Assembly (NCBI GenBank): GCA_964388715.1
Contig: CAYMBN010000013.1
Coordinates: forward strand, 1 to 32,293
Direction of reading: 5' to 3'
DNA from: an uncultured Methanosarcinales archaeon
GTDB lineage: Archaea > Nanobdellota > Nanobdellia > Woesearchaeales > CAYMBN01
DNA length: 32,293 nucleotides
In this document: in pieces, positions 4,487 to 27,447 of the stretch
How the letters are laid out: every line of letters starts with the position of its first letter
Numbering within the stretch: the stretch's first letter is position 1
Translations under genes and position numbers: made by a program
Notes under the pieces: model-generated
What the model was told of the DNA's origin: nothing
Databases searched by the model: none
What the model saw: only the letters and a program-made list of their open reading frames with translations

Positions 4487-4520
4487 TTTTTTAGAAATTA
4501 ATAAATTATATCACACCACT

Positions 4521-4580
4521 CAAGTCTTGCGAAGAACCTAAATTTAAGAGTGCACAAAGTATGATTTAGGTAGTTTTCAC
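4521..4580. repeat. Hairpin repeat family 1, copy A
   Basis: CAAGTCTTGCGAAGAACCTAAATTTAAGAGTGCAC (4521-4555) is identical to 5036-5070. ACCTAAAT/ATTTAGGT stem. Confidence 0.9.
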
Positions 4581-4594: not shown

Positions 4595-4963
4595 TTATTC
4601 AATCTTCAAAGCTTTCATTATTTTGTCAAGCTTTTCATTAATCATCTCAATATCCTTACTAGAAACCTTATCAGAACCACTTTTCCCTTTTTTTGCAAAA
4701 CAATCATCACAATAGACTGGTTTGCTTGAAGTTGGTTTAAAAGGAACTTCACATTCAACACCACAAGAAGAACAAATAACTTTAGTCATCTCAAAATCAC
4801 GCCTATTTCTGCTACCATGTTTACGATCTCTACCAGAACCTCTTCTACCTCTTCCTTTAGGCCGATCTTCAAAACTACCTCTATCTCTGCCACCTCTACT
4901 TCGAGACCTACCTTTAGAATCTCTTTTGCTTCTTCCTCCTCTTGAACGTTCAAATCTTGGCAT
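4595..4963 (-). CDS. CxxC-x17-CxxC zinc-ribbon domain protein with Arg/Gly-rich N-terminus
   Basis: CSSCGVECEVPFKPTSSKPVYCDDCF motif. BRE/TATA-like AACCTTATATAC about 25 nt upstream. Confidence 0.88.
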   Translation of the reverse strand: MPRFERSRGGRSKRDSKGRSRSRGGRDRGSFEDRPKGRGRRGSGRDRKHGSRNRRDFEMTKVICSSCGVECEVPFKPTSSKPVYCDDCFAKKGKSGSDKVSSKDIEMINEKLDKIMKALKIE

Positions 4964-5030
4964 AATTTGATTAAAAATGCCACCAGTATATAAGGTTATG
5001 TGAAATTATTGAAGAAAAAGTCAAAAAATA

Positions 5031-5114
5031 CCAACCAAGTCTTGCGAAGAACCTAAATTTAAGAGTGCACGAAGCACGTTTTAGGTTAAATTGAGCTCTT
5101 TTCGCACTTGATGG
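5031..5114. repeat. Hairpin repeat family 1, copy B (long imperfect inverted repeat)
   Basis: Nested stems CCA/TGG, CAAGT/ACTTG, GCGAAGA/TCTTTTCGC (with bulge), AACCTAAA/TTTAGGTT and GTGC/GCAC. 35-bp identity to copy A. Confidence 0.9.
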
Positions 5115-5132
5115 CATATTAAATAAAAAATA

Positions 5133-5242
5133 TGCGCCGGCTGGGACTGTCGCAGATCTTCTCTTTGTCGCAGAGACTTTCTGATTCGAACCCAGATCAA
5201 AGGCTTGGAAGGCCTCTATCCTAGCCATTAGACTACCGGCGC
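5133..5242 (-). tRNA. tRNA-Gly (anticodon TCC at 5209-5207) with 38-nt intron (5147-5184) at position 59/60
   Basis: Acceptor stem GCGCCGG/CCGGCGC-A. Anticodon arm GAGGC-CTTCCAA-GCCTT. T stem CTGGG/CCCAG with the TTCGAA|T loop interrupted by an insert that forms a bulge-helix-bulge. CCA is not encoded. Confidence 0.95.
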
Positions 5243-11186: not shown

Positions 11187-11708
11187 TTATTTCCCAACAC
11201 CTTGCACTAAAACACTTATTTGCCTATCTCTAGAACAATCAAGCTCAACAAGTAATATCTCTTGCCACCTTCCTCTTACTAATTTCCCATCATTAATAAT
11301 CATTGTCAATGAACAAGGTAAAATCATTGCTTGCGCATGCGAATGTCCATTTATACACTCAGGTATAACACCACAAGAATCAGGTTCACATAAATGATCA
11401 TCACGCTTACCACTCGGATTCTTATCATCTTTAATATCATTATGTCCATACTTTTCATCAGGACTAGCAAACCTATCCAACACTTTCATTAAATCAGGTG
11501 TATAACCTAATACACTTTTTGGCCCAATAAGATTCTTTTCATCTTCATTAATCCAAACAGCACAAGTAGTATGATGACTCTGTATAACAACAACACCAGT
11601 ATTAACACCAGACTCAGAAACAGCTTGCTCAATATCTTTGGTAATAGTAATAAACTCCAATCTCTCCCTAGTCTTATACTGAAATGTCTTTACTTTTGAT
11701 ATCATCAT
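11187..11708 (-). CDS. yjbQ: YjbQ (UPF0047, secondary thiamine-phosphate synthase) family protein with an insertion
   Basis: HTT.AV.INE.E, Y.HN, NGHSH, G.WQ.I..VELD..R.R motifs. Confidence 0.88.
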   Translation of the reverse strand: MMISKVKTFQYKTRERLEFITITKDIEQAVSESGVNTGVVVIQSHHTTCAVWINEDEKNLIGPKSVLGYTPDLMKVLDRFASPDEKYGHNDIKDDKNPSGKRDDHLCEPDSCGVIPECINGHSHAQAMILPCSLTMIINDGKLVRGRWQEILLVELDCSRDRQISVLVQGVGK

Positions 11709-11769
11709 AACACGCCCTTTAGAACTATGATTGAGCTTGATTATTTAAATTTTTGGGATAATTATACGA

Positions 11770-11888
11770 GCATAGTGTCCATGCCATCTTTTTGTAAAAA
11801 ATAATTATTCGGTTCGTAAGACAATAATATCAAAAACTTTAATGGTTAATAATGAGTTTTTGTATTTTTTACAGGCATGACACTATGC
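11770..11888 (+). repeat. Structured repeat family 2, copy A (candidate ncRNA or MITE-like element)
   Basis: Terminal inverted repeat GCATAGTGTC/GACACTATGC plus internal stems. Homologous to 30059-30201, and 11855-11889 is identical to 30168-30202. Confidence 0.9.
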
Positions 11889-11930
11889 AATACAGATAAT
11901 TATTTAAATACTATAAAACAGCTATATTTA

Positions 11931-12428
11931 ATGGATACACTAGCACACTTTTTGTGGACAGTAATACTTTTTAGAAAAGTTAAACATTATGTTTGGGCTT
12001 TGTTATTTGGTGTTTTACCAGACCTTTTATCATTTGGAATTTCTATTATGTCCAGATTACTTTTCACAGGTTTTAGTTTTGGCAGACCTGAGGTACATCA
12101 GATTCCCAAGTGGGTAATGATGTTATACGGTATAACTCACAGCTTAATCATTCCCATCATCATTTTACTAATAATTTACATCATCTACAAAAAAGTCCCT
12201 TTATTCCTATTAGCATGGCCAATTCACATAATCCTCGACATTCCTACACACACAAAAGAATTCCTTCCAACACCTTTCCTATGGCCAATAAGCAACTACG
12301 CATTCCCAGGAATAAGTTGGGGAACTAGGTGGTTCATGCTAACCAACTACTCCTTAATCATCATAGGATTAATTTACGTTTTCAGAAAAGAACTAACAGC
12401 TGGAATCAAAAAAATATTTACTCCCTAA
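11931..12428 (+). CDS. Membrane-bound metal-dependent hydrolase (YdjM/DUF457-like)
   Basis: M...AH, LPD, THS, H..LD..TH, ..WP motifs with TM helices. The track start at 11877 lies inside the repeat. Confidence 0.75.
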   Translation: MDTLAHFLWTVILFRKVKHYVWALLFGVLPDLLSFGISIMSRLLFTGFSFGRPEVHQIPKWVMMLYGITHSLIIPIIILLIIYIIYKKVPLFLLAWPIHIILDIPTHTKEFLPTPFLWPISNYAFPGISWGTRWFMLTNYSLIIIGLIYVFRKELTAGIKKIFTP

Positions 12429-13341
12429 TCTCAATATCATCCACAATCCCATCAGAATCAAGATCAATTCCTTCTACAACCTTTGCATTTATCTTATTAT
12501 TCTTTTTATTACCTAACACAATTTCATTAAACTTTTTCAGAAAAGCAATGATTGCTGCTTTTGTACCAGAATAACGTTTTCCTGCAACAAGTAAAACATA
12601 TTTTTCTTTATTAAAAGGATTCCTTGCTTTAACAATAATACCAATTTCATCACTCATATACTTCTGCTTTGAAACACTTGAATAAATATTACCTTTATCA
12701 AACCTAATTGGTAATTTATCATTAACTTTCTCAGTCACTTTATTAACAATTGGTCCTCCAATCAAGATCAAATTATTATTCAAATCTTCTGAACGTGTTT
12801 CAGTATCAAGCTTTACATTCAAATTAGGAACATAATTCAAAAAAGTACCTAAAAATAATGCAAGATCCATTCCATAATAACCATCCCTACTACGTGCCTT
12901 TTCTGGTCCATGCGGATCAGGACTTCCGACGATAATCATAGCATTAAGCTGTCCTTCTTTAATAAAAGGTTCTAAAAACTCATTTGTCTCTTGTTTTGTT
13001 GCAGTTATTTTCTGTGTTGCTTTTAACTCTTTAAACCTTAATACAAAAGCAGGCTCAACCAACCCATAAAAATTAGCAACAGCACCTTGTATTGTTTCTC
13101 TTTTAACAACCCTAATAATTCTATCCTTTTCCATATTCCTAACATGATAATAAATCTTCTGCTCATTCTCCTTCAACTTCTTAGCAATCTCTTTAGGATA
13201 CATTACTTTATCAGAAATCAATTTCAAAATCCTAATAGCTAACTCAGACTTAATTGACTTTATCTGACTCAGCTTAATTTCTTTTGCAGGCAATGAATAT
13301 GTTTCATTAACCCTTTTTTCAATTATAAACATTCTAACCAC
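12418..13341 (-). CDS. ArsR-like HTH transcriptional regulator with C-terminal alpha/beta (S-layer-like) domain
   Basis: wHTH YPKEIAKKL..EQKIYYH. C-terminal NLILIGGP.VN and L.VAG....GT.AA. Confidence 0.78.
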   Translation of the reverse strand: MVRMFIIEKRVNETYSLPAKEIKLSQIKSIKSELAIRILKLISDKVMYPKEIAKKLKENEQKIYYHVRNMEKDRIIRVVKRETIQGAVANFYGLVEPAFVLRFKELKATQKITATKQETNEFLEPFIKEGQLNAMIIVGSPDPHGPEKARSRDGYYGMDLALFLGTFLNYVPNLNVKLDTETRSEDLNNNLILIGGPIVNKVTEKVNDKLPIRFDKGNIYSSVSKQKYMSDEIGIIVKARNPFNKEKYVLLVAGKRYSGTKAAIIAFLKKFNEIVLGNKKNNKINAKVVEGIDLDSDGIVDDIEIRE

Positions 13342-13382
13342 TAAAAATTATTTTTTACTAGTATTATAAATATTTTAATAAT

Positions 13383-13396
13383 ACTTATATATAAGT
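13383..13396. promoter_or_regulatory. Palindromic TATA box / candidate operator upstream of glmS
   Basis: Perfect 14-bp palindrome ACTTATATATAAGT, 27 nt before the glmS ATG, in the divergent intergenic region. Confidence 0.6.
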
Positions 13397-13422
13397 TTTT
13401 CGTTTCTATACAGATCTAAAAA

Positions 13423-15183
13423 ATGTGTGGCATAATTGGTTATAAAGGGCAGGGAAACGCAATTTCTATAGTAATCAATGGCCTAAAAACACTTGAATAC
13501 CGTGGATATGATTCCTGGGGCATAGGCTGTTTAAACAACAATTCTTTCTCCACACACAAAAAAATAGGACAAATAGGCAATGTTCTTATTGAAAACATCC
13601 CTGTTGAACAAGCAAACATCTGCCTAGGCCATACACGCTGGGCCACATCTGGATCAGTCACACAAACAAACGCTCACCCACACTTATCAAACAACAAACA
13701 AATCCTAGTTGTACACAACGGAATCATTGAAAACTTCCAAGAACTTAAAGAATTCTTAATGCAAAAAAAAATTAACTTTTATTCACAAACAGACACAGAA
13801 ATTATCCCTAACCTAATCCAATACTATCTATCTCAAAACAATTCTTTCAAAGAATCTGTAAGAAAAACAATGCAAAGACTAGAAGGTAGTTCAGCTTTTG
13901 TCGCAATCAACGAAAAAGGCGAAATGGCAGGTGCACGTGATGGTTCCCCTCTTGTTTTAGGAAAAAACAACAATGACTTTTTTGCTGCATCAGATGTTCC
14001 AGCATTTCTAAATCACACTAACCAAGCAATTTATCTTAATGACGGCCAAATGTTTCACATTAATTCAAAACTAGAAATATTTGATGTAAAAACAAACCAA
14101 GAAATCCAATACAACATAAAAACAATTGATTGGACAATTGAAGATGCAAAAAAAGGTAATTATAAACATTTCATGTTAAAAGAGATCTGTGAACAAAAAC
14201 ACACAATTAAACAGTCAATTGAACAAGACAAAAAACTAATTCAAGAAGTTACTCAGATGATTAAAAACGCAAAAGGTGTTTTCTTTGTTGCCTGTGGAAC
14301 AAGCTACAATGCTTGCTTATCAGCATCATACCTATTCTCAGAAATATGCAACATGCACATTAACGTTGTCCTTGCATCAGAATTCCCACATTACCAAAAC
14401 TTTCTAAACAAAGATACACTAATGATAGCTGTCTCACAATCAGGTGAAACAGCAGACTTACTTGACGCAGTCAAAGTTGCAAAAGCAAAAGGTGTAAAAG
14501 TTATCTCAATTGTTAATGTAATGGGCTCAACACTAATGAGAATAAGTGACAAAACAATCATGATGAATGCTGGCCCAGAGATTTGCGTGCTAAGCACAAA
14601 AAGTTATACATCACAAGTTGCAATTTTCATTCTACTTGCATACTCTGTTGCAAATAAATTCCAAGAAGGCAAATCATATATTGAAGAAGCATGTGGTTAT
14701 GTTGATGAAGTAATTGACAATAATATTGAAGACCTCAAAGAACTTGCCGAAAAAATTAAAAACCAGAAAGATTTCTTCCTCATTGGCAGAGACCTAGCAT
14801 GTCCAAGTGCAATGGAAGGTGCTCTTAAAATAAAAGAAGTATCTTATATCCATGCAGAAGGTTTTGCAGGTGGCGAACTAAAACACGGTCCAATTGCATT
14901 AATTGAGCAAGGTGTTCCTGTAATTGTATTACACACAGAAAAAACACGAAAACAAATATTAAGCAATGCACTTGAAGTTAAATTACGTGGTGCATACATA
15001 ATTGGAATTGATGACCAACCCAATGATGCATTTGACTTTTACATTTACGTCCCCACTGCAGGAATAACAGACCCATTATTAGACATAATTCCAATCCAAA
15101 TCCTTTCATACTACCTGGCACTCGCACGTAACTGCGATCCAGACAAACCAAGAAACTTAGCAAAGAGCGTGACAGTAAGATGA
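13423..15183 (+). CDS. glmS: Glutamine--fructose-6-phosphate aminotransferase
   Basis: MCGIIG, LEYRGYDS, GHTRWAT, HNGIIEN, SQSGET, ELKHGP, PRNLAKSVTV. Confidence 0.97.
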   Translation: MCGIIGYKGQGNAISIVINGLKTLEYRGYDSWGIGCLNNNSFSTHKKIGQIGNVLIENIPVEQANICLGHTRWATSGSVTQTNAHPHLSNNKQILVVHNGIIENFQELKEFLMQKKINFYSQTDTEIIPNLIQYYLSQNNSFKESVRKTMQRLEGSSAFVAINEKGEMAGARDGSPLVLGKNNNDFFAASDVPAFLNHTNQAIYLNDGQMFHINSKLEIFDVKTNQEIQYNIKTIDWTIEDAKKGNYKHFMLKEICEQKHTIKQSIEQDKKLIQEVTQMIKNAKGVFFVACGTSYNACLSASYLFSEICNMHINVVLASEFPHYQNFLNKDTLMIAVSQSGETADLLDAVKVAKAKGVKVISIVNVMGSTLMRISDKTIMMNAGPEICVLSTKSYTSQVAIFILLAYSVANKFQEGKSYIEEACGYVDEVIDNNIEDLKELAEKIKNQKDFFLIGRDLACPSAMEGALKIKEVSYIHAEGFAGGELKHGPIALIEQGVPVIVLHTEKTRKQILSNALEVKLRGAYIIGIDDQPNDAFDFYIYVPTAGITDPLLDIIPIQILSYYLALARNCDPDKPRNLAKSVTVR

Positions 15184-15836
15184 TCAAAGCTGTAATATTT
15201 GATATGGATGGGGTTTTAAGAAACACTCCTGAATTTGATATTAAAGTTGTAGAAAATGCATTTAAAGATCTAGGTCTTGAAATTAATGATAAAGTAAGAA
15301 AACTTGCTGTTGGAAGAAATCCTAGGGATTATATTCCAATGTTATTAAATGAATATGGTTTTAATTTTGATCCTGTTGAATTTAAAAAACTAACTCATAA
15401 ACATTTTACCCATTTTCTTGACAAAGAAATGAAACTAATGCCTTTTGTAAGAGAAACTTTTGAAATGTTGAAAAAGAATAATTTAAAGATAGCAATTGCA
15501 ACAAGTGCAAGTCCTAGAGGTGCTTATCAATTTTTCATTGACAAATTTAACTTTCCAAACACTTTTGATGTAATCACTACATTTGACGATTGTAAAGAAA
15601 GAAAACCTAATCCAGAAGTATACTTAACTTCATTAAGAAAACTAAATCTAAAAGCAGAAGAATGTATTGTTATAGAAGACACACAGATTGGCCTTGAGGC
15701 TGCAAAAGCAGCAGGAATCAAATGTGTTGTTGTACCAAATGAGTTTACAAAAGATTTAGATTTCACTAAAGCAGACGTCATAATCAACTCACTCAAAGAA
15801 CTAAACTTAGACTTAATAAAGAGGTTAGAACAATGA
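15180..15836 (+). CDS. HAD family IA phosphatase (beta-PGM-like), paralog 1
   Basis: FDMDG motif I, ATS, KPNP, IED...G..AA..AG. Confidence 0.9.
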   Translation: MIKAVIFDMDGVLRNTPEFDIKVVENAFKDLGLEINDKVRKLAVGRNPRDYIPMLLNEYGFNFDPVEFKKLTHKHFTHFLDKEMKLMPFVRETFEMLKKNNLKIAIATSASPRGAYQFFIDKFNFPNTFDVITTFDDCKERKPNPEVYLTSLRKLNLKAEECIVIEDTQIGLEAAKAAGIKCVVVPNEFTKDLDFTKADVIINSLKELNLDLIKRLEQ

Positions 15837-16486
15837 TAAAAGCAATATTATTCGACATGGATGGTGTAATTATTAATAGTGAACCAATTCATAGTAAAGT
15901 AGAATCCTCTTTACTAGTTGAATTAGGAGCAAAAGTTACTGAGGATGATTTCTTAAAATACGCAGGGATGCCATTCGATGCAATAGCAGCAGATGTCTTA
16001 AAAAAAGATAAAGATGATCCTGTTATTAAAGATGTAGTTAAAAAAAAGTTTGACAGGATGTTACCTTTATGTGAAAAAGAATTAAAAACCTATCCAAATG
16101 TAACAGAAACACTAAAACAACTAAAAAAAGAATTCTCATTAGCACTAGCATCAAGTTCTATTAGTGTTTTTATAAAATATGTAATAAAAAAATTCAATTT
16201 ATCAGATAATTTTGATGTTGTTGTTAGTGCTGCAGACGATGTTAAAAACGGAAAACCAGCACCAGACATATTTCTTAAAGCTGCAGAAAAACTTAATGTT
16301 AAACCAGAAGAATGTGTTGTTGTTGAAGACGCTCTTAATGGAATAAAAGCAGCAAAAGCAGCTGGCATGAAATGTATTGCAAACACAAACTCATTTCCAA
16401 AAGACAAATTAACAGAGGCAGACTTAATAATTGACAACTTCAATGAACTCACAATTGATACAATAAAACAATTAGGTGAAAAATGA
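15833..16486 (+). CDS. HAD family IA phosphatase (beta-PGM-like), paralog 2
   Basis: FDMDGVIINSE, ASSS, GKPAPDIF, VEDA..G..AAKAAGM. Confidence 0.92.
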   Translation: MIKAILFDMDGVIINSEPIHSKVESSLLVELGAKVTEDDFLKYAGMPFDAIAADVLKKDKDDPVIKDVVKKKFDRMLPLCEKELKTYPNVTETLKQLKKEFSLALASSSISVFIKYVIKKFNLSDNFDVVVSAADDVKNGKPAPDIFLKAAEKLNVKPEECVVVEDALNGIKAAKAAGMKCIANTNSFPKDKLTEADLIIDNFNELTIDTIKQLGEK

Positions 16487-17823
16487 CACGTAAACTCTTT
16501 GGCACTGACGGAATCCGTGGAATCGCAAACCAATATCCAATGACAGCTGATGTTGCCATAAAACTAGGCAAAGCAATTGCAATCACATTCAGAAACGGTA
16601 AACCAATGCCAAGAATAGTTATTGGTAAAGATACTCGTGAATCAGGTTACTTATTTGAATACGCACTCACAGCAGGAATAGTTGCAATGGGAGGTCGTGC
16701 ATTACTAGTTGGTCCAATGCCCACTCCAACAATAGCACGTTTAACAAAATCAATGAACGCAGACGCAGGTATTATGATTACTGCTTCACATAATCCTTAC
16801 CAAGATAATGGTATTAAGATTTTTAACAAAAACGGCTTCAAACTATCTGACGAAGTTGAACAAAAGATAGAAAAATTAGTCATTGAAAACAACTTTGAAA
16901 TTTATCAAGGTCAAGTTGGAAACACATTCAGAGTTGAACAAGTATATGGAAGATATGTTGAATTTGCAAAAGCAACAATCAATGATAACAGTCTTGAAGG
17001 ATTAAAAATAGTAGTTGATTGTGCAAATGGTGCAGCTTACAAAATCGCTTCTTATGTTTTCAAAGAACTTGGTGCAGAAAGTATTATCCTCAACAATCAA
17101 CCAGACGGTAAAAACATAAATGAAAAATGCGGTTCACTCCATCCAGAAATTATTAAAGCAGCTGTTCTTGGTCACAAAGCAGACATTGGCATTGCACTTG
17201 ACGGCGATGCTGACAGAGTTATTGTTATTGACGAAAATGGCCAAGAAGTTGATGGTGATAAAATAATGTTAATCTGCGCAAACCAACTAAAAAAACAAGG
17301 CAAACTAAACAAAGACACAATTGTAACAACAGTTATGAGCAATATCGGAATGCAAGAAGCAGCAGATAAATTAAACATCAAATTAGTAAGAACAAAAGTT
17401 GGCGATCGTTACGTAATAAAGGAAATGAAAGACAATAATTACAACTTTGGTGGTGAACAATCAGGTCACATCATTTTTCTAGAACACACAACAACAGGCG
17501 ATGGCATTATCACAGCACTTCAATTATTAAACATAATAAAACAAACAGGAACAAAACTATCACAACTTGCAAATATCATGACAACTTACCCACAAACTCT
17601 AGTGAATATCAATGTAATCTCAAAACCACCATTAGAATCACTTGAACTAGTCCAAAAAATTATTAAACAAGTTGAATCTACACTAGGACAACAAGGCAGA
17701 GTCTTAGTCCGTTACTCAGGCACAGAAAACTTATGCAGAGTAATGATTGAAGGCAAAGATCAACAACAAATAACACAACTCGCAAACCAAATAGCAGAAG
17801 AAATCAAAAAGGTGATTGGATAA
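16483..17823 (+). CDS. glmM: Phosphoglucosamine mutase
   Basis: LFGTDGIRG, ITASHNP (phospho-Ser), DGDADR, GGEQSGH, RYSGTE. Confidence 0.95.
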   Translation: MTRKLFGTDGIRGIANQYPMTADVAIKLGKAIAITFRNGKPMPRIVIGKDTRESGYLFEYALTAGIVAMGGRALLVGPMPTPTIARLTKSMNADAGIMITASHNPYQDNGIKIFNKNGFKLSDEVEQKIEKLVIENNFEIYQGQVGNTFRVEQVYGRYVEFAKATINDNSLEGLKIVVDCANGAAYKIASYVFKELGAESIILNNQPDGKNINEKCGSLHPEIIKAAVLGHKADIGIALDGDADRVIVIDENGQEVDGDKIMLICANQLKKQGKLNKDTIVTTVMSNIGMQEAADKLNIKLVRTKVGDRYVIKEMKDNNYNFGGEQSGHIIFLEHTTTGDGIITALQLLNIIKQTGTKLSQLANIMTTYPQTLVNINVISKPPLESLELVQKIIKQVESTLGQQGRVLVRYSGTENLCRVMIEGKDQQQITQLANQIAEEIKKVIG

Positions 17824-19010
17824 TGCAAGCCGTAATACTAGCAGCAGGAAAATCAACAAGAACATACCCTTTAACAGTTAACTATCCTAAAGCATTACTA
17901 AAAATAGCCAACAAAACAATTCTTGAACATAGTCTTGATGCTTTACAAGGACTTGTTGACGAAGTTATCCTTGTAGTAGGCTTCAAAAAAGAACTCATAA
18001 CACAAAAATTTGGTTCAAAATACAAAGATATCAAACTAACTTATGTTGAACAAAAAGAATTAAACGGACCTGGTGGTGCAATCCAATTATGTGAAAAACT
18101 TCTAAAAGATAAATTCCTTGTTATGAACGGAGATGACATTTATTCAAAAAAAGATATTGAAAAATGTATTCAACACAAGTACTGTGTCATGTCACAAAAG
18201 ATTGATCATCCTGAAAGATGGGGAATATTTGAAGTTAAAGATAATAAAGTTATTTCATTTGAAGAAAAACCTAAACATTCAAAATCAAATCTTGGCAATA
18301 TTGGGGTTTATGTTTTTAACAAAAAAGTTTTTGAACATAAACTAGAAAAAACATCAAGAAATGAATATGAAATAACTGATTACATCACTTTCCTAATCAA
18401 AAAAGGAGAAGATGTTTATTGTGAACAAGTTTCAGATTATTGGCTTCCTGTTGGATATCCTTGGCACATTCTTGAAGCAAACGAATTCATGCTAAAAAGA
18501 ATAAAAAAATCTGATATAAAAGGCACAGTTGAACAAGGAGCAACAATAAAAGGTGTTGTTGTTATAGGTGAAGGCACTCTTATAAGAAGCGGAACCTATA
18601 TTAAAGGTCCTGTCATGATTGGAAAAAACTGTGTAATTGGTCCAAACTGTTACATCAGACCTTACACAACAATCGCAGACAATTGTAAAATCGGTAATGC
18701 ATCAGAAGTCAAAAACTCAGTCTGCTATGAAAACACAGGCATTAGCCATCTATGTTATGTAGGTGATTCTGTTATAGGTATGAACACAAACCTTGGCGGT
18801 GGTACAATCACTGCAAACCTACGCCATGATAATGCAAATGTCAAAACATTAGTTAAAGATGAACTAGTTGACTCAGGAAGAAGAAAGTTTGGCACAGTTA
18901 TTGGAGAAAACGTTCACACAGGAATCCATACTTCTATTTACCCTGGCAGGAAAATCTGGCCAGACAAATCTACTCTTCCAGGCGAAGCAGTAAAAAAAGA
19001 TATAAAATAA
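17823..19010 (+). CDS. glmU: Bifunctional sugar-1-phosphate nucleotidyltransferase/acetyltransferase (archaeal GlmU)
   Basis: LAAGKSTR.YPLT...PK, NGD, hexapeptide repeats, HL.YVGDS, GTITANLRHD, GRRKFG. Confidence 0.92.
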   Translation: MQAVILAAGKSTRTYPLTVNYPKALLKIANKTILEHSLDALQGLVDEVILVVGFKKELITQKFGSKYKDIKLTYVEQKELNGPGGAIQLCEKLLKDKFLVMNGDDIYSKKDIEKCIQHKYCVMSQKIDHPERWGIFEVKDNKVISFEEKPKHSKSNLGNIGVYVFNKKVFEHKLEKTSRNEYEITDYITFLIKKGEDVYCEQVSDYWLPVGYPWHILEANEFMLKRIKKSDIKGTVEQGATIKGVVVIGEGTLIRSGTYIKGPVMIGKNCVIGPNCYIRPYTTIADNCKIGNASEVKNSVCYENTGISHLCYVGDSVIGMNTNLGGGTITANLRHDNANVKTLVKDELVDSGRRKFGTVIGENVHTGIHTSIYPGRKIWPDKSTLPGEAVKKDIK

Positions 19011-19238
19011 TTACCTAGCCACTATCATAGTACTAGTTAACTTATTCCCTGGTATGGATCTTATTTGTTCTATAACAAACTTTTCCAATTCAGCAGGACT
19101 TTCTACTTGAACTTTCATAATAAGATCCCACTCACCAAAAATAAGATTAACATCTTTAATTTCAGGCAACTCACTTAACGCATCCAGAGCATTTCTTTCA
19201 GACCCTGGATTAAAACTTGCTAATATATATGCAAACAT
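19011..19238 (-). CDS. Stand-alone Lrp/AsnC ligand-binding (RAM) domain protein
   Basis: AYIL...GEWDL...IRSIPG...TST.I pattern. Start set at MFAY. Confidence 0.85.
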   Translation of the reverse strand: MFAYILASFNPGSERNALDALSELPEIKDVNLIFGEWDLIMKVQVESPAELEKFVIEQIRSIPGNKLTSTMIVAR

Positions 19239-19239
19239 T

Positions 19240-19857
19240 TTATTGCACCTCCGATAATGGTTTTCTTTTAATAAAATCAGGAACATCTATTTCCCTACTA
19301 TCTCCTTGTAAGTATGGGCTAATATTAAAATTTGGATCAATTTCTTTCATATCCTTTAATGTTTGTTCAATTTGATCACTACCCTTTTTTATCCATTCTT
19401 CCCAAGACTCAATAGTAACTTTATTTTCTTTTGTATAAACTGAAATATCGTACCCATCAATTCCTTTCCAAGTTATTTTAAAGTTAAAAACTTCAAGTTC
19501 ATGTTCACAAGAGCCAGTTCCTAGTGTTTTATACATCTTTAGTAATTCTGTTATTTTTTGTTGTTCATCAACATATCTATCTGCAAAACATAAACGTATT
19601 CTTGGGTTTCCTTCATATATAGAGTCTTTCACCTTTACACCAAGACCACCTGCTATCTCAGGAAAATCATGTTCATCAATTAAATGTGTTAAAAAGTCAA
19701 GCTTAATTTTTTCAACATGATCAACTGGAATCCTATATGTAACTTCAAATTCATTTGCTAACCCAAAACTTTCTACTGCTTTTTCCAATGCTTCATACTT
19801 CATTGGATTACACTTTGATTTATGTTTCTGTTGTAATTCAGCCATTCTTACCCCCAC
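19240..19857 (-). CDS. Hypothetical protein
   Basis: About 200-aa ORF exactly filling the gap between trmI and the Lrp-domain gene. Confidence 0.7.
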   Translation of the reverse strand: MGVRMAELQQKHKSKCNPMKYEALEKAVESFGLANEFEVTYRIPVDHVEKIKLDFLTHLIDEHDFPEIAGGLGVKVKDSIYEGNPRIRLCFADRYVDEQQKITELLKMYKTLGTGSCEHELEVFNFKITWKGIDGYDISVYTKENKVTIESWEEWIKKGSDQIEQTLKDMKEIDPNFNISPYLQGDSREIDVPDFIKRKPLSEVQ

Positions 19858-20589
19858 TTAAATTTTCCTTACAAAACTTAAAAATCCAGTATGACCAAGC
19901 ATATCTGACCTTGGCCTAACCTTCCTCCCTTCTACTATCCACTCTCTCTTTAATATCTCTATGGTTTTTTCATATATAAATTCTTTGTTTTTTTCAATCT
20001 CTTTCACAAACTCCATCACTTGCGTTATACAAGGAGAATAACTTACAAGAAAACCACCTGGTTTAAGTGCTTTAGAAACAGAATTTAATGCTCTCCACGG
20101 TTCAGGAACATCCAAAGTAACCAAATCAACATTTTTTTCATCAATTTTCTTACAAACATCCTTATTTTTAACTTTAATATTCTTCAATCCTAAAAACTCA
20201 ATATTCTCATTAACCAATTTAGTAAAATCCTTTCTGATTTCATACGTAACAACTTCTTTAACAATATTAGCTAATGCTAAACACAATCCACCTGATCCTG
20301 CACCAGCATCAACAACTTTACTTTTCTTATTAACACCAGTCTCACTAATTATCATCCCAACATCTTTCCGCATTATAATCTGCGCACCACGCTTAATCCG
20401 TTTATATTGATCAATAAAACTCGGTTCAAGAATACTAAACTCTTTCCCTGTATTAGTCTTAACCTTTCCCTTCTTTTTCTTAAGATCCTTTTTCTTAATA
20501 AAGCCGAACTGTGTATGGTAATCTTTAGAAGTATCTTTAACAACAAGTGTTTTTTCTTTACTAACCAAGACCTTTTTAATTGGTTTCAT
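19858..20589 (-). CDS. trmI: tRNA (adenine-57/58-N1)-methyltransferase
   Basis: HTQFG, RGAQII..KD, DAGAGSG, LD.PEPW, YSPC..Q, RP...M.GHTGFL. GGAG RBS before the ATG at 20589. Confidence 0.93.
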   Translation of the reverse strand: MKPIKKVLVSKEKTLVVKDTSKDYHTQFGFIKKKDLKKKKGKVKTNTGKEFSILEPSFIDQYKRIKRGAQIIMRKDVGMIISETGVNKKSKVVDAGAGSGGLCLALANIVKEVVTYEIRKDFTKLVNENIEFLGLKNIKVKNKDVCKKIDEKNVDLVTLDVPEPWRALNSVSKALKPGGFLVSYSPCITQVMEFVKEIEKNKEFIYEKTIEILKREWIVEGRKVRPRSDMLGHTGFLSFVRKI

Positions 20590-20672
20590 ATAATCTCCAA
20601 TACAATCAGTCATATAAAAACCTTTTTATTTTACCAAAAGGTTTATATTATAATAAATTATATTTATTTAAA

Positions 20673-20933
20673 ATGAGAAAAAAGAGGAAAAATAAAGTAA
20701 AAAGAATTTATTACAAATTCACAGACACTCCAAAAAGATCTCTTGTAAAATCAATCACATGGAGAATCATTGGAATTATTATTCTCGGATTAATCAGTTG
20801 GTACATCACAAAAGACTTAGAAACAGCAACAATAGTGACAGTTGTCTTCCACTTAATCAGATTCATTCTATATTACTTCCATGAACGTATCTGGGAAAGA
20901 ATCAATTGGGGCCAAGAAAAAGAAAAACTCTAA
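20673..20933 (+). CDS. DUF2061 membrane protein
   Basis: RSLVKSITWR and YYFHERIW motifs. Confidence 0.85.
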   Translation: MRKKRKNKVKRIYYKFTDTPKRSLVKSITWRIIGIIILGLISWYITKDLETATIVTVVFHLIRFILYYFHERIWERINWGQEKEKL

Positions 20934-21599
20934 TCATTTCTCATAATACTCAACACTCATATCATTCTTAAGAATATCATATGCTCTTGTCACATGTTTA
21001 TCATCTAAGATTAGCGTAATCTCTGTTTCAGTATTAACAAGATCAATAATATTAACATTCTCAAGAGCTAATGCTCTTGTTATTGCAAAGAAAAACCCAG
21101 GTCTATTAACACATTTCTTAGGAATCTTCATTGACAAAGATGAAATCTTATCCTGAACTTTTTTCACTTTTTCTCCTTTCAAAATCTTCAAAAATCTTTT
21201 CCTATACTTAACATTGCCAATAATCAAAACCTCATAATTACCTTCAATAATATTAAGTGTATCACCTTCACTAAAACTCACAATATCATACAATTTCATC
21301 AATTTCTTAAAAATTCTTTGTGACTTAAACGCAGAAATTTCAAACAAATTAGATTTAACAAGCAAATCAGACTTTGCACTTAACCTAACTCTCTGATAAA
21401 ACTCTTTTTTACTTTTTTCCAAATACCTTCTGATCGCCATAGAAATTGCAGAAGTCTTTACCTTTCCCATTTCTTTCTCAATCTGCGGCTGAATCATCTC
21501 AGCCAAAGCACCAATGTTAATTAAATCTTTAACCAATGCTTCATGCACAAAAGGTTTCTCCTGTAATATCTTTTTCGTTAAATGCGCAACAGTAACCAT
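20934..21599 (-). CDS. Archaeal ACT-domain protein with N-terminal helical (HTH-like) domain
   Basis: LIN..ALA..I...AI.MAIRRY N-domain. C-terminal ACT pattern PG......L...NVNII...NT.TE. Confidence 0.8.
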   Translation of the reverse strand: MVTVAHLTKKILQEKPFVHEALVKDLINIGALAEMIQPQIEKEMGKVKTSAISMAIRRYLEKSKKEFYQRVRLSAKSDLLVKSNLFEISAFKSQRIFKKLMKLYDIVSFSEGDTLNIIEGNYEVLIIGNVKYRKRFLKILKGEKVKKVQDKISSLSMKIPKKCVNRPGFFFAITRALALENVNIIDLVNTETEITLILDDKHVTRAYDILKNDMSVEYYEK

Positions 21600-21678
21600 A
21601 ACATTTTCACCCTAATTTTGTTAATATTTTAACATCAAGTTAATATATTATATAAAGTTTTCCTTTATTATTAAACAA

Positions 21679-21984
21679 ATGGAGTGTGAGAAAATGCCGG
21701 AATTATATTTTAAACCAGGAGTAGATTACAACAATATTGCAGGACAATTAGGTGTTAGTGTCCGAGATTTCTCAACTTATCTAGATTTACATGTTAGATT
21801 AAGTGGGGACAGTAAAAGTCGTAATGCCGAAATAATTAATTTTAGTTTTAGTGGAGAAGACTTTGCAACTTACCAACGTGTAAAAGGACAAATTAATAGT
21901 GATGATTTAAGAGAGTTAGTTATGGGTTGTTTTGTAGAACAAGAATATTCTCCAGTAGAACGTGAAATTGAAACTTTACACTAA
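21679..21984 (+). CDS. Hypothetical protein
   Basis: 101-aa ORF with upstream TATA and downstream T-tracts. Confidence 0.6.
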   Translation: MECEKMPELYFKPGVDYNNIAGQLGVSVRDFSTYLDLHVRLSGDSKSRNAEIINFSFSGEDFATYQRVKGQINSDDLRELVMGCFVEQEYSPVEREIETLH

Positions 21985-22022
21985 TTAAAAAATTATTTTT
22001 ACTTTTTTTTTAAAAATAAAAA

Positions 22023-22523
22023 TTAATGAACAGTATTAGGTCCATAACTATTCAAAAATATTCTGTATAATCCCATTCCTGCTTCCGTATTTGGGTTACT
22101 TAATCTAGCTAATCTATGTTGATCATATGTTTCCTCAACTTTCCGCACATCACAATCATCAATATATGATACCAATCCTTCAACAGCATCAACATCAAAA
22201 TCAGCTGTTAAAAACTCTGTTCCTGAATTAACTCCATTATTCAAAAGCACTTGACCCAACTCAACAGGTCTAACTCCTCCATTATTAAAACTACATCTCA
22301 CATAAGTATCCTTTCTTGGTCTTTTTACAGATGATAATGGTGATCCTTCTAGTGTAGCATAAGCTGCTGCAGCTTCAACACTTTCTACTGTTCCTCCCAT
22401 TGCCCTTACAACAGTCTCAACTGTTTCAAGATAATCAGGATCAACTCCTTTTAAGTGCACGTAAAGCTCTTGAACAGCCTTACCATCATCTCTTGGTCCT
22501 TTTTGAACAAATGAATTTTCCAT
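22023..22523 (-). CDS. Hypothetical protein
   Basis: GGAGG RBS precedes the ATG at 22523 (MENSFVQKG...). Confidence 0.7.
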   Translation of the reverse strand: MENSFVQKGPRDDGKAVQELYVHLKGVDPDYLETVETVVRAMGGTVESVEAAAAYATLEGSPLSSVKRPRKDTYVRCSFNNGGVRPVELGQVLLNNGVNSGTEFLTADFDVDAVEGLVSYIDDCDVRKVEETYDQHRLARLSNPNTEAGMGLYRIFLNSYGPNTVH

Positions 22524-22569
22524 TTTTACTCTCCTCCATATCATTTATTTATTAATCACAAACACTTTG

Positions 22570-22615
22570 AAAAAAAACCCGCAGCCCAGAGCACTTGTCA
22601 GGCACTCATGACCTA
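22570..22615 (-). terminator. GC-rich structured segment followed by T8 tract (candidate terminator/attenuator)
   Basis: Minus strand reads AGGTCATGAGTGCCTGACAAGTGCTCTGGGCTGCGGG-TTTTTTTT. Confidence 0.5.
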
Positions 22616-22622
22616 AGAAATC

Positions 22623-22688
22623 TTAAATAATAATGATAATAATTCCTACTATCAGAATACTTATTATTTTTTTAGTGAATCTTACCAT
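22623..22688 (-). CDS. Putative 21-aa hydrophobic micro-peptide MVRFTKKIISILIVGIIIIII
   Basis: Manual translation. BRE/TATA AAAAGGTTTATATATAA lies about 25 nt upstream of the ATG. Confidence 0.5.
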   Translation of the reverse strand: MVRFTKKIISILIVGIIIIII

Positions 22689-22769
22689 GTTGAAAAATAA
22701 AAATCTAACTTTATATATAAACCTTTTGATTTCAAAACCTTTAAATAATACAATCAATTAATTTTTTAC

Positions 22770-23189
22770 ATGAAAAAACCATTAGTACTAATTGTTTCTG
22801 CTTGCATTCTTTATTCAGGTTCAGCTCATGCTATAGAATACAAACCAACACGCCAACATAAAAAAGTAATCTACAATCCTTTCACACAAGAAACTGATAT
22901 TGAAAAATTAAAAGAATTCTACATTAAAGTTTACGGAGAAGAACCAAGATACATTGACATTGTTTTCAGAGACTTTGACATCAAAGCACTACTTCAATTA
23001 AGACCATCTGCACTATACTCTCCTTGTCCTATCTCACCATTAGCACAAACAGTAAACACAACTTCTTACCAAACACAAGAAGCAACAAGAATAAAAAAAC
23101 AACTTGAACACAACCCAGAAACAAGAATTGAAAAATTGATAAAGAAGTATCAAAAATTTATCAGAAAAATAAGAATAAATCTTCTATAA
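22770..23189 (+). CDS. Hypothetical secreted protein
   Basis: Signal peptide MKKPLVLIVSACILYSGSAHA. AAAACCTTTAAATA promoter upstream. Confidence 0.7.
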   Translation: MKKPLVLIVSACILYSGSAHAIEYKPTRQHKKVIYNPFTQETDIEKLKEFYIKVYGEEPRYIDIVFRDFDIKALLQLRPSALYSPCPISPLAQTVNTTSYQTQEATRIKKQLEHNPETRIEKLIKKYQKFIRKIRINLL

Positions 23190-23244
23190 TATATAATCAC
23201 AAACATAAATGTTTAAATAATAGTTTAACCAACTATTTTTAGTT

Positions 23245-24669
23245 ATGAGTGAAGACAATATAGAAACTACCATCAATGAACTATGTGAAAAATGGGGTGT
23301 AGATGCTGTTAGAGATAGATTAGCCCATATACTTTCTGATGACACAGAATTCTTCGGAAGATTATTAGAAAACAAACTTTTAAGATTCCAAGGATACACT
23401 GAAAGAAATAGATTATTGCCAGGTAAAAGATATCTTAAAATTGATGCCTTGTTAAGATTATTAGATGTAAACAAAATAATACAAGTTGGTCCTGCACTCT
23501 GTTGCATGACTTTTGCAGATGGTAAAAAACTTCCAGAAGACCTTAATTTTTACTTTAATAACTTTGACGAGAAATTTCCAGAATTCCAAGAACAACTCGG
23601 ACATCCTTACATCACAGCAGAATTTCAACCAATGAAAAACTGGACAAAAGATGATAGAGAAATTTATGTTCTAAACCAAGAACATTATGATTTTGTAAGA
23701 CAACAAAACATTGGAGTTCACATGCCTATAACTGGTAATCCTCATGATATTTTTGCAGCAATGCACTTTGCTCATGAAATCAATGCAGACTACTTTGTAA
23801 TTCACTTAACACCTGATTTAAAAAGATATCCTAATGATTATGAATTAATGCAAAAAAATCCTTGGTATTTTAGAGAAAAATTTATAGAGCATTGGATGAA
23901 AGAATTCCAAAACATAGCTCGCTTTTACAATGAAAACAATTTTAATTTTGTTCCTTGCATTGAAAACTTAGAATTCCCAAAATTTCCTTGTACACCAAAA
24001 GAAGTTGAAGTTGCTTTTTATGAATGTAAAAAATACCTACCAAATCTTCAAATCTTATGTGACATAGCACACTTTTGGAGAAGTCAATCCTTGATACAAG
24101 AATTCTTCTGGAAACATGCACAAGGTGATTCTTCAAAGCTTCCACATTACCCCGTATATATGGCAAATGAACTTGAAAAAATACAAGAACCATTCCATGA
24201 CTTCTTTGACCATGCAATCTATGATCACAATGCTTTAAAATTTAATATTCATGTATTTCATCTTGCAGGTTGTGATGGTTATCATACTCATCTTATCCCA
24301 GGACTTAGAAATGATGAGAATCCTGATGAAAAAAAGGTTATTAACATTCGCAGAGGATATGATGAATCAAGAGAAATGAACTTTGAGAGAATGTTAAAAT
24401 GCTTTTCTTGTTATGTATTAGACACAGGAGTAAGAACAGATGAACATAATAACCTAATATTTGGTGATGGAACAATGAGAAAATCAAAAATCATACTTGA
24501 ATGTTACACAAATCCATTCCAACCTCATGTAAATGGTGTTGCTTTCGAACATATCTTAAATGGTGCTAAATCTGTAAGGGACTATATTTTACAATACATG
24601 GGTAAACAACAAATGAAATCTTTACTAAGATGCCATGTAGAAAACGCAATAAGAAAACCAAATACTTAA
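23245..24669 (+). CDS. Xylose-isomerase/AP-endonuclease-2-like TIM-barrel metalloprotein
   Basis: Ordered motifs GVHMP, VIH, CIEN, LCDIAH, VFHLAG...H, IILE. Confidence 0.65.
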   Translation: MSEDNIETTINELCEKWGVDAVRDRLAHILSDDTEFFGRLLENKLLRFQGYTERNRLLPGKRYLKIDALLRLLDVNKIIQVGPALCCMTFADGKKLPEDLNFYFNNFDEKFPEFQEQLGHPYITAEFQPMKNWTKDDREIYVLNQEHYDFVRQQNIGVHMPITGNPHDIFAAMHFAHEINADYFVIHLTPDLKRYPNDYELMQKNPWYFREKFIEHWMKEFQNIARFYNENNFNFVPCIENLEFPKFPCTPKEVEVAFYECKKYLPNLQILCDIAHFWRSQSLIQEFFWKHAQGDSSKLPHYPVYMANELEKIQEPFHDFFDHAIYDHNALKFNIHVFHLAGCDGYHTHLIPGLRNDENPDEKKVINIRRGYDESREMNFERMLKCFSCYVLDTGVRTDEHNNLIFGDGTMRKSKIILECYTNPFQPHVNGVAFEHILNGAKSVRDYILQYMGKQQMKSLLRCHVENAIRKPNT

Positions 24670-25283
24670 TTCTTCTCTTTAATCTCACTAGCATACCTAT
24701 GTGCTAGATGCAATGGCTCAGGTAATTTATGAGGGACTTTAACAAGTGATTTTACTAACTCAACAGACTTTTGTAAACTTATTCTGTGGCCCAAACTTAT
24801 AATCAACGGCCTTCCATGTTCTTTTGTTTGAATCAAATTAGCTCTAACTTCTTTATCAACAATAATTGCACCATCTCTCATCTCACCGCACAACTGTTTT
24901 TTTGCAATACCAATTGTAGGAGTATCTGTAAGAATTCCTAAATGAGATGCAAAACCAACTCTTCTTGGATGTAATATTCCATTCCCAGCAACAATCATTA
25001 CATCAGGTTTATTTTCAAGCTTGTTAAAAGCTTCAATTGAACTAGGCAATTCTCTAAAAGCAAGATAACCAGGAACATATTTCATAGGAACATCCATAAC
25101 ATGGTATGATTTCTCAATTACTTCTAAACTCTTTGCATCACACACAACAATCACAGAAAAAATCTTATCATTAGTAAAAGCTTGATCACAACCAGCAACA
25201 GTTTCTATTTTATCGAAATCATCACTACTTACAACCTTCTTCGCAATCTTAATTTGCTCCTCTTTTAGCTTTATAGTGTCCAT
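24666..25283 (-). CDS. nfi: Endonuclease V homolog (one catalytic Asp replaced by Ala)
   Basis: AGCD, YVPGYLAFRE, (D>A)GNGILHPRR.G.ASHLG, TIGIAK, PEPL..AH. Confidence 0.9.
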   Translation of the reverse strand: MDTIKLKEEQIKIAKKVVSSDDFDKIETVAGCDQAFTNDKIFSVIVVCDAKSLEVIEKSYHVMDVPMKYVPGYLAFRELPSSIEAFNKLENKPDVMIVAGNGILHPRRVGFASHLGILTDTPTIGIAKKQLCGEMRDGAIIVDKEVRANLIQTKEHGRPLIISLGHRISLQKSVELVKSLVKVPHKLPEPLHLAHRYASEIKEKN

Positions 25284-25413
25284 TTTTCAGCCTTTTTTAA
25301 ATAAGAAAACCAAACACTACTATATAAACCTTTCTGTTTTTGCTACTACAAAGTAAGTAAATAACTAATTCCAATAACAATTTTTTTAAATAAAGTTAAT
25401 TTTTTAGTTTAAA

Positions 25414-25737
25414 ATGGGAGATACAATTCATATTCAGAAAAGTAGCATGCCAAGTAATTTAAATATACCAACAAACCTAGTTAAAATACTTGCAGAATTA
25501 ATCACTCAATATACTCCAACAAAAATTGCTCTTAAACCAGATTATGAAGATGAAAGGCATGAGGAAATGGGATTTCCATTCAGATATGGAATAGAATGTC
25601 ATTTTGATCAAATAATTGATTTCAGTGTTCCACTTGAAAGACTAGAACAAGATCAAAATATATTAACAGACAATACTGATGGAAAAACAGTATACACTCT
25701 TACTTTCCACTATTTTCCTGAAATAAAAAAAGATTAA
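25414..25737 (+). CDS. Hypothetical protein
   Basis: 107-aa ORF with upstream TTTAAATA. Confidence 0.6.
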   Translation: MGDTIHIQKSSMPSNLNIPTNLVKILAELITQYTPTKIALKPDYEDERHEEMGFPFRYGIECHFDQIIDFSVPLERLEQDQNILTDNTDGKTVYTLTFHYFPEIKKD

Positions 25738-26093
25738 ACTCCTCGAATCCTTCTCAAGTAATCAATTGATGGAACACTTCTTCTTGGTCTTCTTCTGATA
25801 ACAGGTCTGTCTTCATCAACTTCTTCTTCCATCTTAGGAGTTCCTGTTGTAGTTACAACCACTTTCTTCTTTACAACTGGTTTTACTTTTCTAACTACAG
25901 GTGTTTCTGTTGTTTTCTTTCCCATAATATCATTATACAACTTAATCAATTCAACATTAATCATTTTTCCTGCTTCTTGCTTCATCATTAATTCAATCTT
26001 AGCAGAAAATTTGTAAGCATTTTCTTTACAATATTGTCTAAATGCTACTAAAGTATCTTTATCTACAGTTATAGAAAGCTTTGTTTTCGCCAT
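25734..26093 (-). CDS. Ribbon-helix-helix-like DNA-binding protein with low-complexity tail
   Basis: KTKLSITVD.D....F..YC......S.KIE RHH pattern. GAGGGTGAT RBS. Confidence 0.6.
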   Translation of the reverse strand: MAKTKLSITVDKDTLVAFRQYCKENAYKFSAKIELMMKQEAGKMINVELIKLYNDIMGKKTTETPVVRKVKPVVKKKVVVTTTGTPKMEEEVDEDRPVIRRRPRRSVPSIDYLRRIRGV

Positions 26094-26110
26094 GTTAATC
26101 ACCCTCTCTT

Positions 26111-26707
26111 TTAAATTTTTATTATTTTACCATAAGGACCAGGATTCAAAACTTTTGTCTTCCCGATCTTATCTTCTTTGCCACTATCTTCATGCAGATG
26201 ACCACAGATCGCAACATCAGGCTGAACAGTTTTAACAAAATTTCTTATTGTTTTGTTACCACAATGTTCTTCCATGATCATGTCAACCTTTGTTTTGTAA
26301 GGTGGCGCATGCGTTACAAGTACTATTTTGTTAAACTTCTTTATTAATCTTTTGAATTTTTTCGCTCTTTTTGCAAAATCTCGATCAACTAATGAAAATC
26401 CACCTCCACCATGTCCTAAAAAAATAACATCTTTGAAAATAAAACTTTTATTATGTATTGCATAAACATTCTTGAAAAGTGAAGCAGAATCCTTGATTTC
26501 TTTTTCAGATTCATGATTTCCTGGGATGATTACCATTGGCACTTTCAACTTACTTAATTTATGCATAATATAATCAATATCTCTACCAAATATAGTTATA
26601 TCTCCAGCACAAACCATCAAATCAGGATTATATTTTTTAACCTTCTCTTTAATCCTCTTAAGCGCTTTATCGCTTCCATGTATATCAACAAAAGCTAAGA
26701 TCCTCAT
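26111..26707 (-). CDS. Calcineurin-like metallophosphoesterase (Icc-related)
   Basis: DIH, GD, PGNHE, THAPP, CGHLHE, NPG motifs. Confidence 0.92.
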   Translation of the reverse strand: MRILAFVDIHGSDKALKRIKEKVKKYNPDLMVCAGDITIFGRDIDYIMHKLSKLKVPMVIIPGNHESEKEIKDSASLFKNVYAIHNKSFIFKDVIFLGHGGGGFSLVDRDFAKRAKKFKRLIKKFNKIVLVTHAPPYKTKVDMIMEEHCGNKTIRNFVKTVQPDVAICGHLHEDSGKEDKIGKTKVLNPGPYGKIIKI

Positions 26708-26762
26708 AATATAAAGAATATCGCAATAATATTTAAATATAGATGTTTTTGTTCAACAAAAT

Positions 26763-27152: not shown

Positions 27153-27195
27153 GGTTTATATACTATGGAATATTCTTTAGACTGTTCTCAAAAAG

Positions 27196-27447
27196 ATGGT
27201 GGGGGTAATGATTATGTCAGATGTTCAAGAACTTAAGAATAAAATGTTTGAAATGCGTAAAAAGCTGATAACAATGGAATGGGATGATAAACGTAATCAG
27301 CTCAACGAAGGACGTAAAGTATATTATAATAAACTTAGAGAAGAATTCGAAAAACTTGAACAAGAACTTGACACTCTAGAAGGTAATGTAAAAGAGGTCC
27401 CAAAAAAGGAACAAGGTGATAACGAATTTGTAATGCCCATTATGTAA
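27196..27447 (+). CDS. Small coiled-coil hypothetical protein
   Basis: Heptad-rich 83-aa ORF. AAGGTTTATATA promoter. Start uncertain (27196, 27208 or 27214). Confidence 0.7.
   Translation: MVGVMIMSDVQELKNKMFEMRKKLITMEWDDKRNQLNEGRKVYYNKLREEFEKLEQELDTLEGNVKEVPKKEQGDNEFVMPIM

Follow-up and report, generated by a model that had tools for sequence, protein, structure and literature searches.

Dispersed fold-back elements beside TATA boxes in a Woesearchaeota-type archaeon: probable relics of an orphan MITE family

How does a very compact archaeal genome come to carry the same strongly folding, non-coding sequence in two separate intergenic places? The question is raised by the window studied here, a 32,293-nt stretch of DNA that forms one contig (C13) of a genome assembled in 31 contigs (about 31% GC, 95.75% complete). 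The first-pass annotation, made from the letters of the window, had read the two occurrences as copies of one multi-stem element under selection for its fold, and had proposed either an undescribed non-coding RNA or a non-autonomous, possibly REP-like, mobile element whose enzyme is encoded elsewhere.

Both occurrences were located on the + strand at the positions first described, and they align over their full length. Copy A spans 11764-11893 including 6-nt degenerate tips at its ends (core, 11770-11888; 132.2 bits with the covariance model described below), and copy B, a long-loop variant, spans 30053-30207 (125 bits). Every part of the proposed fold, from P1 and P2 through a 7-nt bulge to P3, P4 and P5, is present in both. 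In copy A, the 5' strands of P1 (11768-11779) and P2 (11781-11785) have their partners within 11874-11890. They are followed on the + strand by the moderately variable 7-nt bulge (11786-11792), the 5' strand of P3 (11793-11803, partner 11863-11873), the side hairpin P4 (11804-11828), whose inner 2-bp stem closes a GUAA loop, and P5 (11831-11862), with stems at 11831-11838 and 11855-11862 and a variable loop between them; the 3' strands of P3, P2 and P1 together occupy 11863-11890. The inverted ends of copy B pair over 14 bp (30053-30066 with 30194-30207), and in the pairwise alignment the 24 nt by which this copy is longer fall inside the P5 loop (about 30128-30167), as the first-pass annotation had noticed. 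The stem differences it had read are real in this alignment: P4 has a swap from T-A to A-T together with one wobble, and P2 has two G-U pairs. The C-A mismatch reported next to P1 is seen in one register, but a one-base bulge pairs equally well there without any mismatch.

Copy A folds with a free energy of -36.2 kcal/mol (z of -5.49) into a minimum-energy structure that reproduces P1-P5, and copy B with -47.4 kcal/mol (z of -5.85) into one whose interior is rearranged relative to P1-P5; for each copy, none of 200 shuffled sequences folded as well. The reverse strand of copy A folds nearly equally (-34.5 kcal/mol, z of -5.49). Neither window copy contains an ORF of at least 60 aa, and the ORF listed from 11877 merely starts at an ATG within the 3' arm of copy A.

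The count of two copies turned out to be an underestimate: both are real, but the genome holds 13. An nhmmer search recovered these 13 with E-values from 4e-45 to 3e-19, and a covariance model built on them returned these 13 loci alone, with scores of 116-148 bits. On the opposite strand, the same loci scored only 25-46 bits with this model, so that the orientation of every copy is well defined. The family thus consists of 13 full copies, which lie on seven contigs of the 1.30-Mb genome, and two fragments. The copies are 119-190 nt long and share 68-85% identity with each other (mean 77%), with no close pairs among them, and hence give no sign of recent movement.

The first fragment is a solo left arm on the - strand of another contig (C11:25189-25206), which differs from the corresponding arm of copy B by two mismatches in 18 nt. 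It is followed by unrelated small palindromes, lies upstream of a coding region and looks like a truncated relic. The second is an additional 5' arm of about 36 nt (C1:242693-242728) that abuts the 3' end of the copy at C1:242717-242855; it carries the bulge sequence of that very copy and looks like a partial tandem duplication. In the copy at C8:13605-13794, the 3' strand of P3 is interrupted by a 52-nt insertion consisting of two small hairpins, one of which repeats the P5 stem with a 3-nt loop. Small hairpins similar to this insertion adjoin the solo arm on C11. We considered whether P5 might be a dispersed triloop palindrome in its own right, and dropped the idea, as the P5 stem with a 3-nt loop was found once, in this insertion. 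The window also contains a different, 72-nt repeat (4500-4571 and 5015-5086, 82% identical), possibly the 'family 1' of the first-pass annotation, which adjoins two small - strand ORFs (4595-4963 and 4971-5228), and a 117-nt direct repeat (15638-15754 and 16288-16404, 72% identical) inside the adjacent genes 15180-15836 and 15833-16486, seemingly tandem paralogues.

Conservation of the fold was assessed in a MAFFT alignment of the 13 copies, using the first-described structure extended by outer pairs (48 pairs in all). In this alignment, 91.7% of the cells are paired, compared with 86.7 +/- 0.6 in shuffles, and 16 of the 48 pairs are changed on both sides, compared with 8.7. The number of cells changed on both sides is 39, against 13.5 in shuffles, these cells not being independent events since the copies are paralogues of one genome. 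None of 500 shuffles reached the observed value for any of these three measures. When the partners were slid along the alignment as a control, just 33-50% of cells were paired. One of the five measures, the number of further pair types, was not above the shuffles (reached in 156 of 500).

The covariation is distributed over the whole structure. Pair 45:131 of P3 covaries perfectly (U-A in six copies, C-G in seven), and 11:209, among the outermost pairs of helix 1, occurs as G-C in seven copies, A-U in three and U-A in one; pairs 37:191 and 39:189 are also telling. As seen for the arms, the local hairpins P4 and P5 covary, with pair 58:63 being C-G in eight copies and U-A in five, and pair 75:128 being A-U in ten and G-C in three. 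All four combinations of 45:131 and 58:63 are present among the copies, which points to recurrent compensatory change or to recombination between copies. An alternative interior pairing suggested by RNAalifold (columns 69-72 with 130-133) was rejected, as its columns change on one side only, in contrast to the perfectly covarying P3 pair 45:131. Copy B and the copy at C2:54720-54879 have a homologous 24-nt segment in the P5 loop, yet differ at pair 45:131; either the long loop is an ancestral form that was lost several times, or copies have recombined.

Constraint also differs between the parts of the element. Pairwise identity reaches 83-91% in the P1, P2, P3 and P5 stems and is lower in the P4 stem (76%), the bulge (67%), the P5 loop (56%) and the flanks (29-36%). 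Changes specific to one copy affect 1-2% of cells in the P1, P2, P3 and P5 stems, compared with 5.5% in the bulge, and of 75 stem cells with something other than the majority pair, 49 are still paired. The GUAA loop of P4, which exists on the + strand only, is found in 12 of the 13 copies. Compensatory substitutions thus preserve the pairing of arms and local hairpins, whereas the P5 loop is free to drift, and the selection on a multi-stem fold that the first-pass annotation had proposed from two copies is borne out by constraint and compensatory changes across all 13.

The ends of the copies bear on how they spread. They are imperfect terminal inverted repeats of about 14-16 bp, and helix 1, which they form, is paired in 89% of cases across the 13 copies. 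In 8-nt windows, the 5' and 3' flanks of the same copy match at 6.85 of 8 positions, compared with 5.13 for swapped flanks, and none of 10,000 derangements reached the own-flank sum. The values are 6.23 for own and 4.00 for swapped flanks when offsets are limited to 5-7 nt, and 4.46 and 2.71 with a fixed offset. Exact direct repeats of 9-11 nt flank copy A, the copy on C10 and the copy at C2:54720. The 3' flank of the copy at C1:242717 was unusable for the duplication test because the partial copy abuts there. Around copy A, the target-site duplications lie at 11756-11765 and 11894-11903, with an exact 9-nt identity between 11757-11765 and 11895-11903 (in the 8-nt register, the left one is 11756-11763); the right one overlaps the TATA box of the downstream gene. 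Those of copy B, at 30045-30052 and 30208-30215, match at six of eight positions. The right one includes the stop codon (30211-30213) of a 503-aa gene on the - strand, so that the insertion must have hit the spacer of about 40 nt between this gene and the promoter of the gene for ribosomal protein S3Ae. Dating the insertions by the decay of their duplications was abandoned, as the identity of the duplicates comes out anywhere between 56% and 86%, according to the offset rule chosen. Passages of PMC3184786 define MITEs by terminal inverted repeats, target duplications and long stem-loops. Inverted ends, a duplication of about 8 bp, small size, the lack of an ORF and an intergenic, multicopy distribution together give the family here the character of a MITE.

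We searched the genome for an enzyme that could have moved the copies. No match was obtained for any of 11 Pfam families, all of which do give matches in control genomes: PF01609, PF00872, PF01610, PF00665 and PF07282 (IS4/5, IS256, ISL3, rve and TnpB), PF12762, PF04693, PF13358 and PF01797 (IS1595, ISC1217-type, IS630-type DDE_3 and Y1/HUH), PF00078 (reverse transcriptase) and PF03050 (IS66). The co-occurring transposase, HUH nuclease or reverse transcriptase gene that the first-pass annotation had suggested looking for is therefore missing, as far as these families go, from the 95.75%-complete assembly. The 47 neighbouring proteins scanned are products of housekeeping genes, with no transposase among them, and the genome contains no longer element with the same ends. 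Looking for a parent IS through paired end motifs 40-4000 nt apart yielded chance pairs and a tandem-repeat coding region. The latter (C2:28986-30150), in which a sequence with the 8-nt core motif of the element recurs every ~570 nt, looks unrelated to the MITE. A parent IS could lie in the unassembled part of the genome, as IS copies often fail to assemble. The proposal of a non-autonomous mobile element with its enzyme elsewhere agrees with the inverted ends, the ~8-bp duplications and a genome without a transposase of the families searched.

All 13 copies are intergenic, and most are placed at a regular distance from promoters. Six lie between divergent genes and seven between a gene end and the next promoter; none of the 13 is found between convergent gene ends, which is not significant given that such spacers make up 90 of 772 in a crude ORF call. 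A TATA-like octamer (at least 7 of 8 positions matching) is present on 21 of the 26 flanks. It starts exactly 20 nt from the core in ten flanks, belonging to ten different copies, and at 8, 9, 14, 17, 21, 22, 22, 23, 23, 32 and 32 nt in the others. By eye, an eleventh copy has a 7/8 octamer at 20 nt in addition to an equal-scoring one nearer the core, and the remaining two copies have an octamer at 22 nt. As 20 nt is the sum of a 6-nt tip, an 8-nt duplication and 6 nt, the duplicated target of most copies lies 6 bp upstream of the TATA box, just outside the place where the BRE would sit.

In the window, copy A is framed by two such octamers. One belongs to a divergent UPF0047 gene (11187-11708, - strand) and lies at 11742-11749 on the - strand, 20 nt from the core; the other, at 11903-11910 on the + strand, precedes the downstream gene (likely start codon at 11950) and is 14 nt from the core. 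The octamer of the S3Ae gene (29335-30006, - strand) occupies 30031-30038 on the - strand, and the distance from its start to the copy B core is exactly 20 nt. Other neighbours of the copies are likewise of archaeal type, such as ribosomal proteins S13/S15, a tRNA-splicing endonuclease, Cdc6, FEN1 and PTH2, and the neighbouring genes have no obvious common function. Among copies with a promoter on one side only, orientation relative to it is split (3 versus 3-4 copies).

The octamer distances show a sharp lower bound plus a tail, and survivorship in very short spacers would give the same distribution; the median tandem spacer is 51 nt in the crude ORF call. In so compact a genome, the exact docking could thus partly reflect survivorship. 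Of the four copies with clear slack around them, two keep a distance of 6 bp and two of 8 bp, which hints at real targeting without proving it.

Outside this genome, relatives of the family were sought at several levels. The window has no match at gathering score in Rfam 15, in agreement with the first reading, in which the element was not recognised as a known family. Four further copies compared with Rfam at E-values up to 1 gave six matches, all below threshold (21-30 bits against cut-offs of 41-140), four of them to plant-microRNA hairpin models, and ARAGORN found no tRNA or tmRNA. The covariance model detected no copy in 150 other genomes of the same order, all of other families (the set comprised 151 genomes including that of the window, from 143 genera, and was preceded by an overlapping set of 60). 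The closest S3Ae protein among 25 same-order genomes is 45% identical, and a search of metagenome contigs with the S3Ae protein returned one distant locus (42% identity over 48 residues). Two degenerate consensus patterns had no match in public genome contigs or viral contigs, and one such pattern had none in public metagenome contigs; these exact-pattern scans miss diverged relatives and possibly left out records of the genome itself. Searching plasmids and phages with blastn gave no match either. Contigs of four other DNA runs covering window positions 11400-30400 yielded only identical pieces from the same organism, with zero differences over 11700-12527, and none of them joins across either element. 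Marine samples of two studies contain this organism (runs X1-X8).

Taken together, these results make it likely that the copies are relics of a non-autonomous DNA transposon, a new orphan MITE family of a Woesearchaeota-type DPANN archaeon. A DDE-type transposase making staggered cuts of 8 bp would have moved them in trans, and would no longer be encoded in the assembled genome. Integration would have been aimed at, or would have survived only at, the first position upstream of BRE/TATA that spares the promoter. The fold-back, on this account, would have been kept because it acts as a single-stranded nucleic acid in either orientation, and most likely served the propagation of the element itself first. 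After insertion, it may block incoming transcripts of neighbouring genes through its hairpin and oligo-T. The six copies between divergent promoters should receive no such transcript, and termination therefore cannot explain all copies. A plain DNA transposon needs no local hairpins P4 and P5, and the covariation in them, together with the GUAA loop, looks RNA-like.

The copies might be domesticated, that is, old insertions kept by the host as orientation-independent terminators or insulators, or as upstream promoter elements. Runs of at least five T occur on both strands in all 13 copies, and six copies start 2-20 nt from the 3' end of a gene or overlap it. Runs of five to six T stop the archaeal RNA polymerase (PMC2253867), and the efficacy of termination is set by the U-tracts of terminators (PMC8716108). 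The absence of a clear strand asymmetry is what a symmetric hairpin predicts, copy-specific changes in the stems are as rare as given above, a streamlined 1.3-Mb genome has retained thirteen elements of about 135 bp, and in 10-11 copies the distance between inverted end and TATA box is fixed at 14 bp. Against such a role, the divergent promoters around six copies leave nothing there to terminate, T-runs are common anyway at 31% GC, and a terminator needs neither P4 nor a GNRA loop; the neighbouring genes, moreover, have no obvious common function, and the duplicate identities, which vary with the offset rule, allow no calibration of the age of the insertions. We regard domestication, as judged from the sequences, as possible but doubtful. 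In a scenario that joins targeting with retention, the transposase would have read the architecture of the promoter, perhaps as DNA bent by TBP/TFB, in the manner of TFIIIB guiding Ty3, and would have inserted the copies exactly 6 bp upstream of TATA boxes; the host would then have kept the fold for a task at these promoters, as a bidirectional insulator or terminator, or as a small RNA produced from the neighbouring TATA box. This combined scenario seems to us rather unlikely, and to our knowledge transposon targeting guided by transcription factors has not been described in archaea.

The copies could alternatively be structured small RNA genes, transcribed on the + strand from a TATA box about 20 nt upstream, with the three-way junction and its GNRA loop as their product and the transposon-like spread as merely the way in which the genes multiplied. 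Several of the observations above would fit: compensatory changes occur in the local hairpins as well as in the arms, the four combinations of 45:131 and 58:63 call for repeated compensatory events or recombination, the widely kept GUAA loop is specific to the + strand, and conservation is far stronger in the stems than in the P5 loop. In ten copies, moreover, the stretch upstream of the 5' core has an octamer at a distance of 20-23 nt, and it is present in two of the three copies where that stretch is coding sequence. However, the outward-facing neighbouring genes, with start codons 47-90 nt away, account for the flanking TATA boxes. Archaeal transcription starts about 23 nt from the TATA box, and a start at this distance would land in P1, so that the transcript would lack the 5' strand of this stem. 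In three copies, a gene ends 4-20 nt upstream, which leaves no room for a promoter of their own, and orientation is independent of the sole neighbouring promoter where there is only one. G-U cells outnumber A-C cells by 16 to 7 within P1-P5, which would favor the + strand, but the ratio is only 10 to 7 by columns and 19 to 16 over all cells. With this balance and with the unbiased orientation, the earlier preference for the + strand is not supported. The lack of a copy in the 150 same-order genomes and of an Rfam family at threshold also speaks against a small RNA gene, and we consider this origin improbable.

A REP/REPIN-like or IS200/IS605-derived palindrome, mobilised in the form of single-stranded DNA through an HUH (Y1) transposase or a RAYT, would likewise be a strongly folding, dispersed, intergenic palindrome, but such elements have neither terminal inverted repeats nor target duplications, both of which are present here (the duplications at ~8 bp), and as PF01797 (Y1) and PF07282 (TnpB zinc-ribbon) are unmatched in the genome, the REP-like or HUH mobilisation first considered is very hard to sustain.

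As a MITE family, the copies can be compared with known systems. ERIC/IRU elements of enterobacteria, imperfect palindromes of ~127 bp with old, immobile copies and a constraint thought to act on the transcript hairpin, resemble them in palindromic form, age of the copies and hairpin constraint, but are bacterial, are usually located in stretches that are transcribed, and lack a clear transposase and a clear target duplication. For the MITEs of Sulfolobus and Halobacterium, parent IS elements can be recognised, whereas no parent was found in this genome. For Correia elements of Neisseria, the target duplication is the dinucleotide TA. Ty3, which is directed to the start sites of RNA polymerase III by the TBP-containing factor TFIIIB, is comparable only in its base-pair-precise integration beside a promoter. 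This is an analogy and not a membership, as Ty3 is a eukaryotic LTR retrotransposon, and guidance by TBP/TFB of the family described here would be conjecture.

Other parallels come from the literature on small repeats. The bcr1 repeat of the Bacillus cereus group is a MITE-like element whose fold is kept by compensatory changes (PMC3184786); like the present family, it is dispersed, of similar size (~155 bp) and flanked by short direct repeats, with a compensated multi-stem fold. It differs in being bacterial and in having 5-bp repeats, and is known to be transcribed (PMC3184786); the present family is archaeal, with ~8 bp and a fixed distance to the TATA box. Correia elements (CREE/NEMIS), too, are small MITEs with inverted ends. 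Most of them sit directly upstream of genes, and they can affect the expression of neighbours; they have sigma-70-type promoters of their own and a site for IHF (PMC10969869), neither of which is known for the copies here. The same paper lists MITEs for Sulfolobus, Halobacterium and Haloquadratum, and a census of prokaryotic MITEs (PMC11602168) counts a Woesearchaea genome among the MITE-densest archaea. Archaeal MITEs so described are non-coding, flanked by terminal inverted repeats, multicopy and intergenic, as is this family. Neither docking at a fixed distance from TATA boxes nor covariation in a three-way junction is reported in the passages of PMC10969869 and PMC11602168 drawn on here.

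What began as a lead to a new non-coding RNA thus probably resolves into a MITE family, a known kind of element. If the docking reflects targeting and not survivorship, it would represent a mode of target-site choice new to archaeal transposons, and would also provide a promoter marker for DPANN genomes, whose owners cannot be grown alone. The compensated stems in a genome without a visible transposase bear on whether streamlined symbiont genomes keep such elements for their usefulness, and the 13 copies offer a ready test set for ideas on both targeting and retention.
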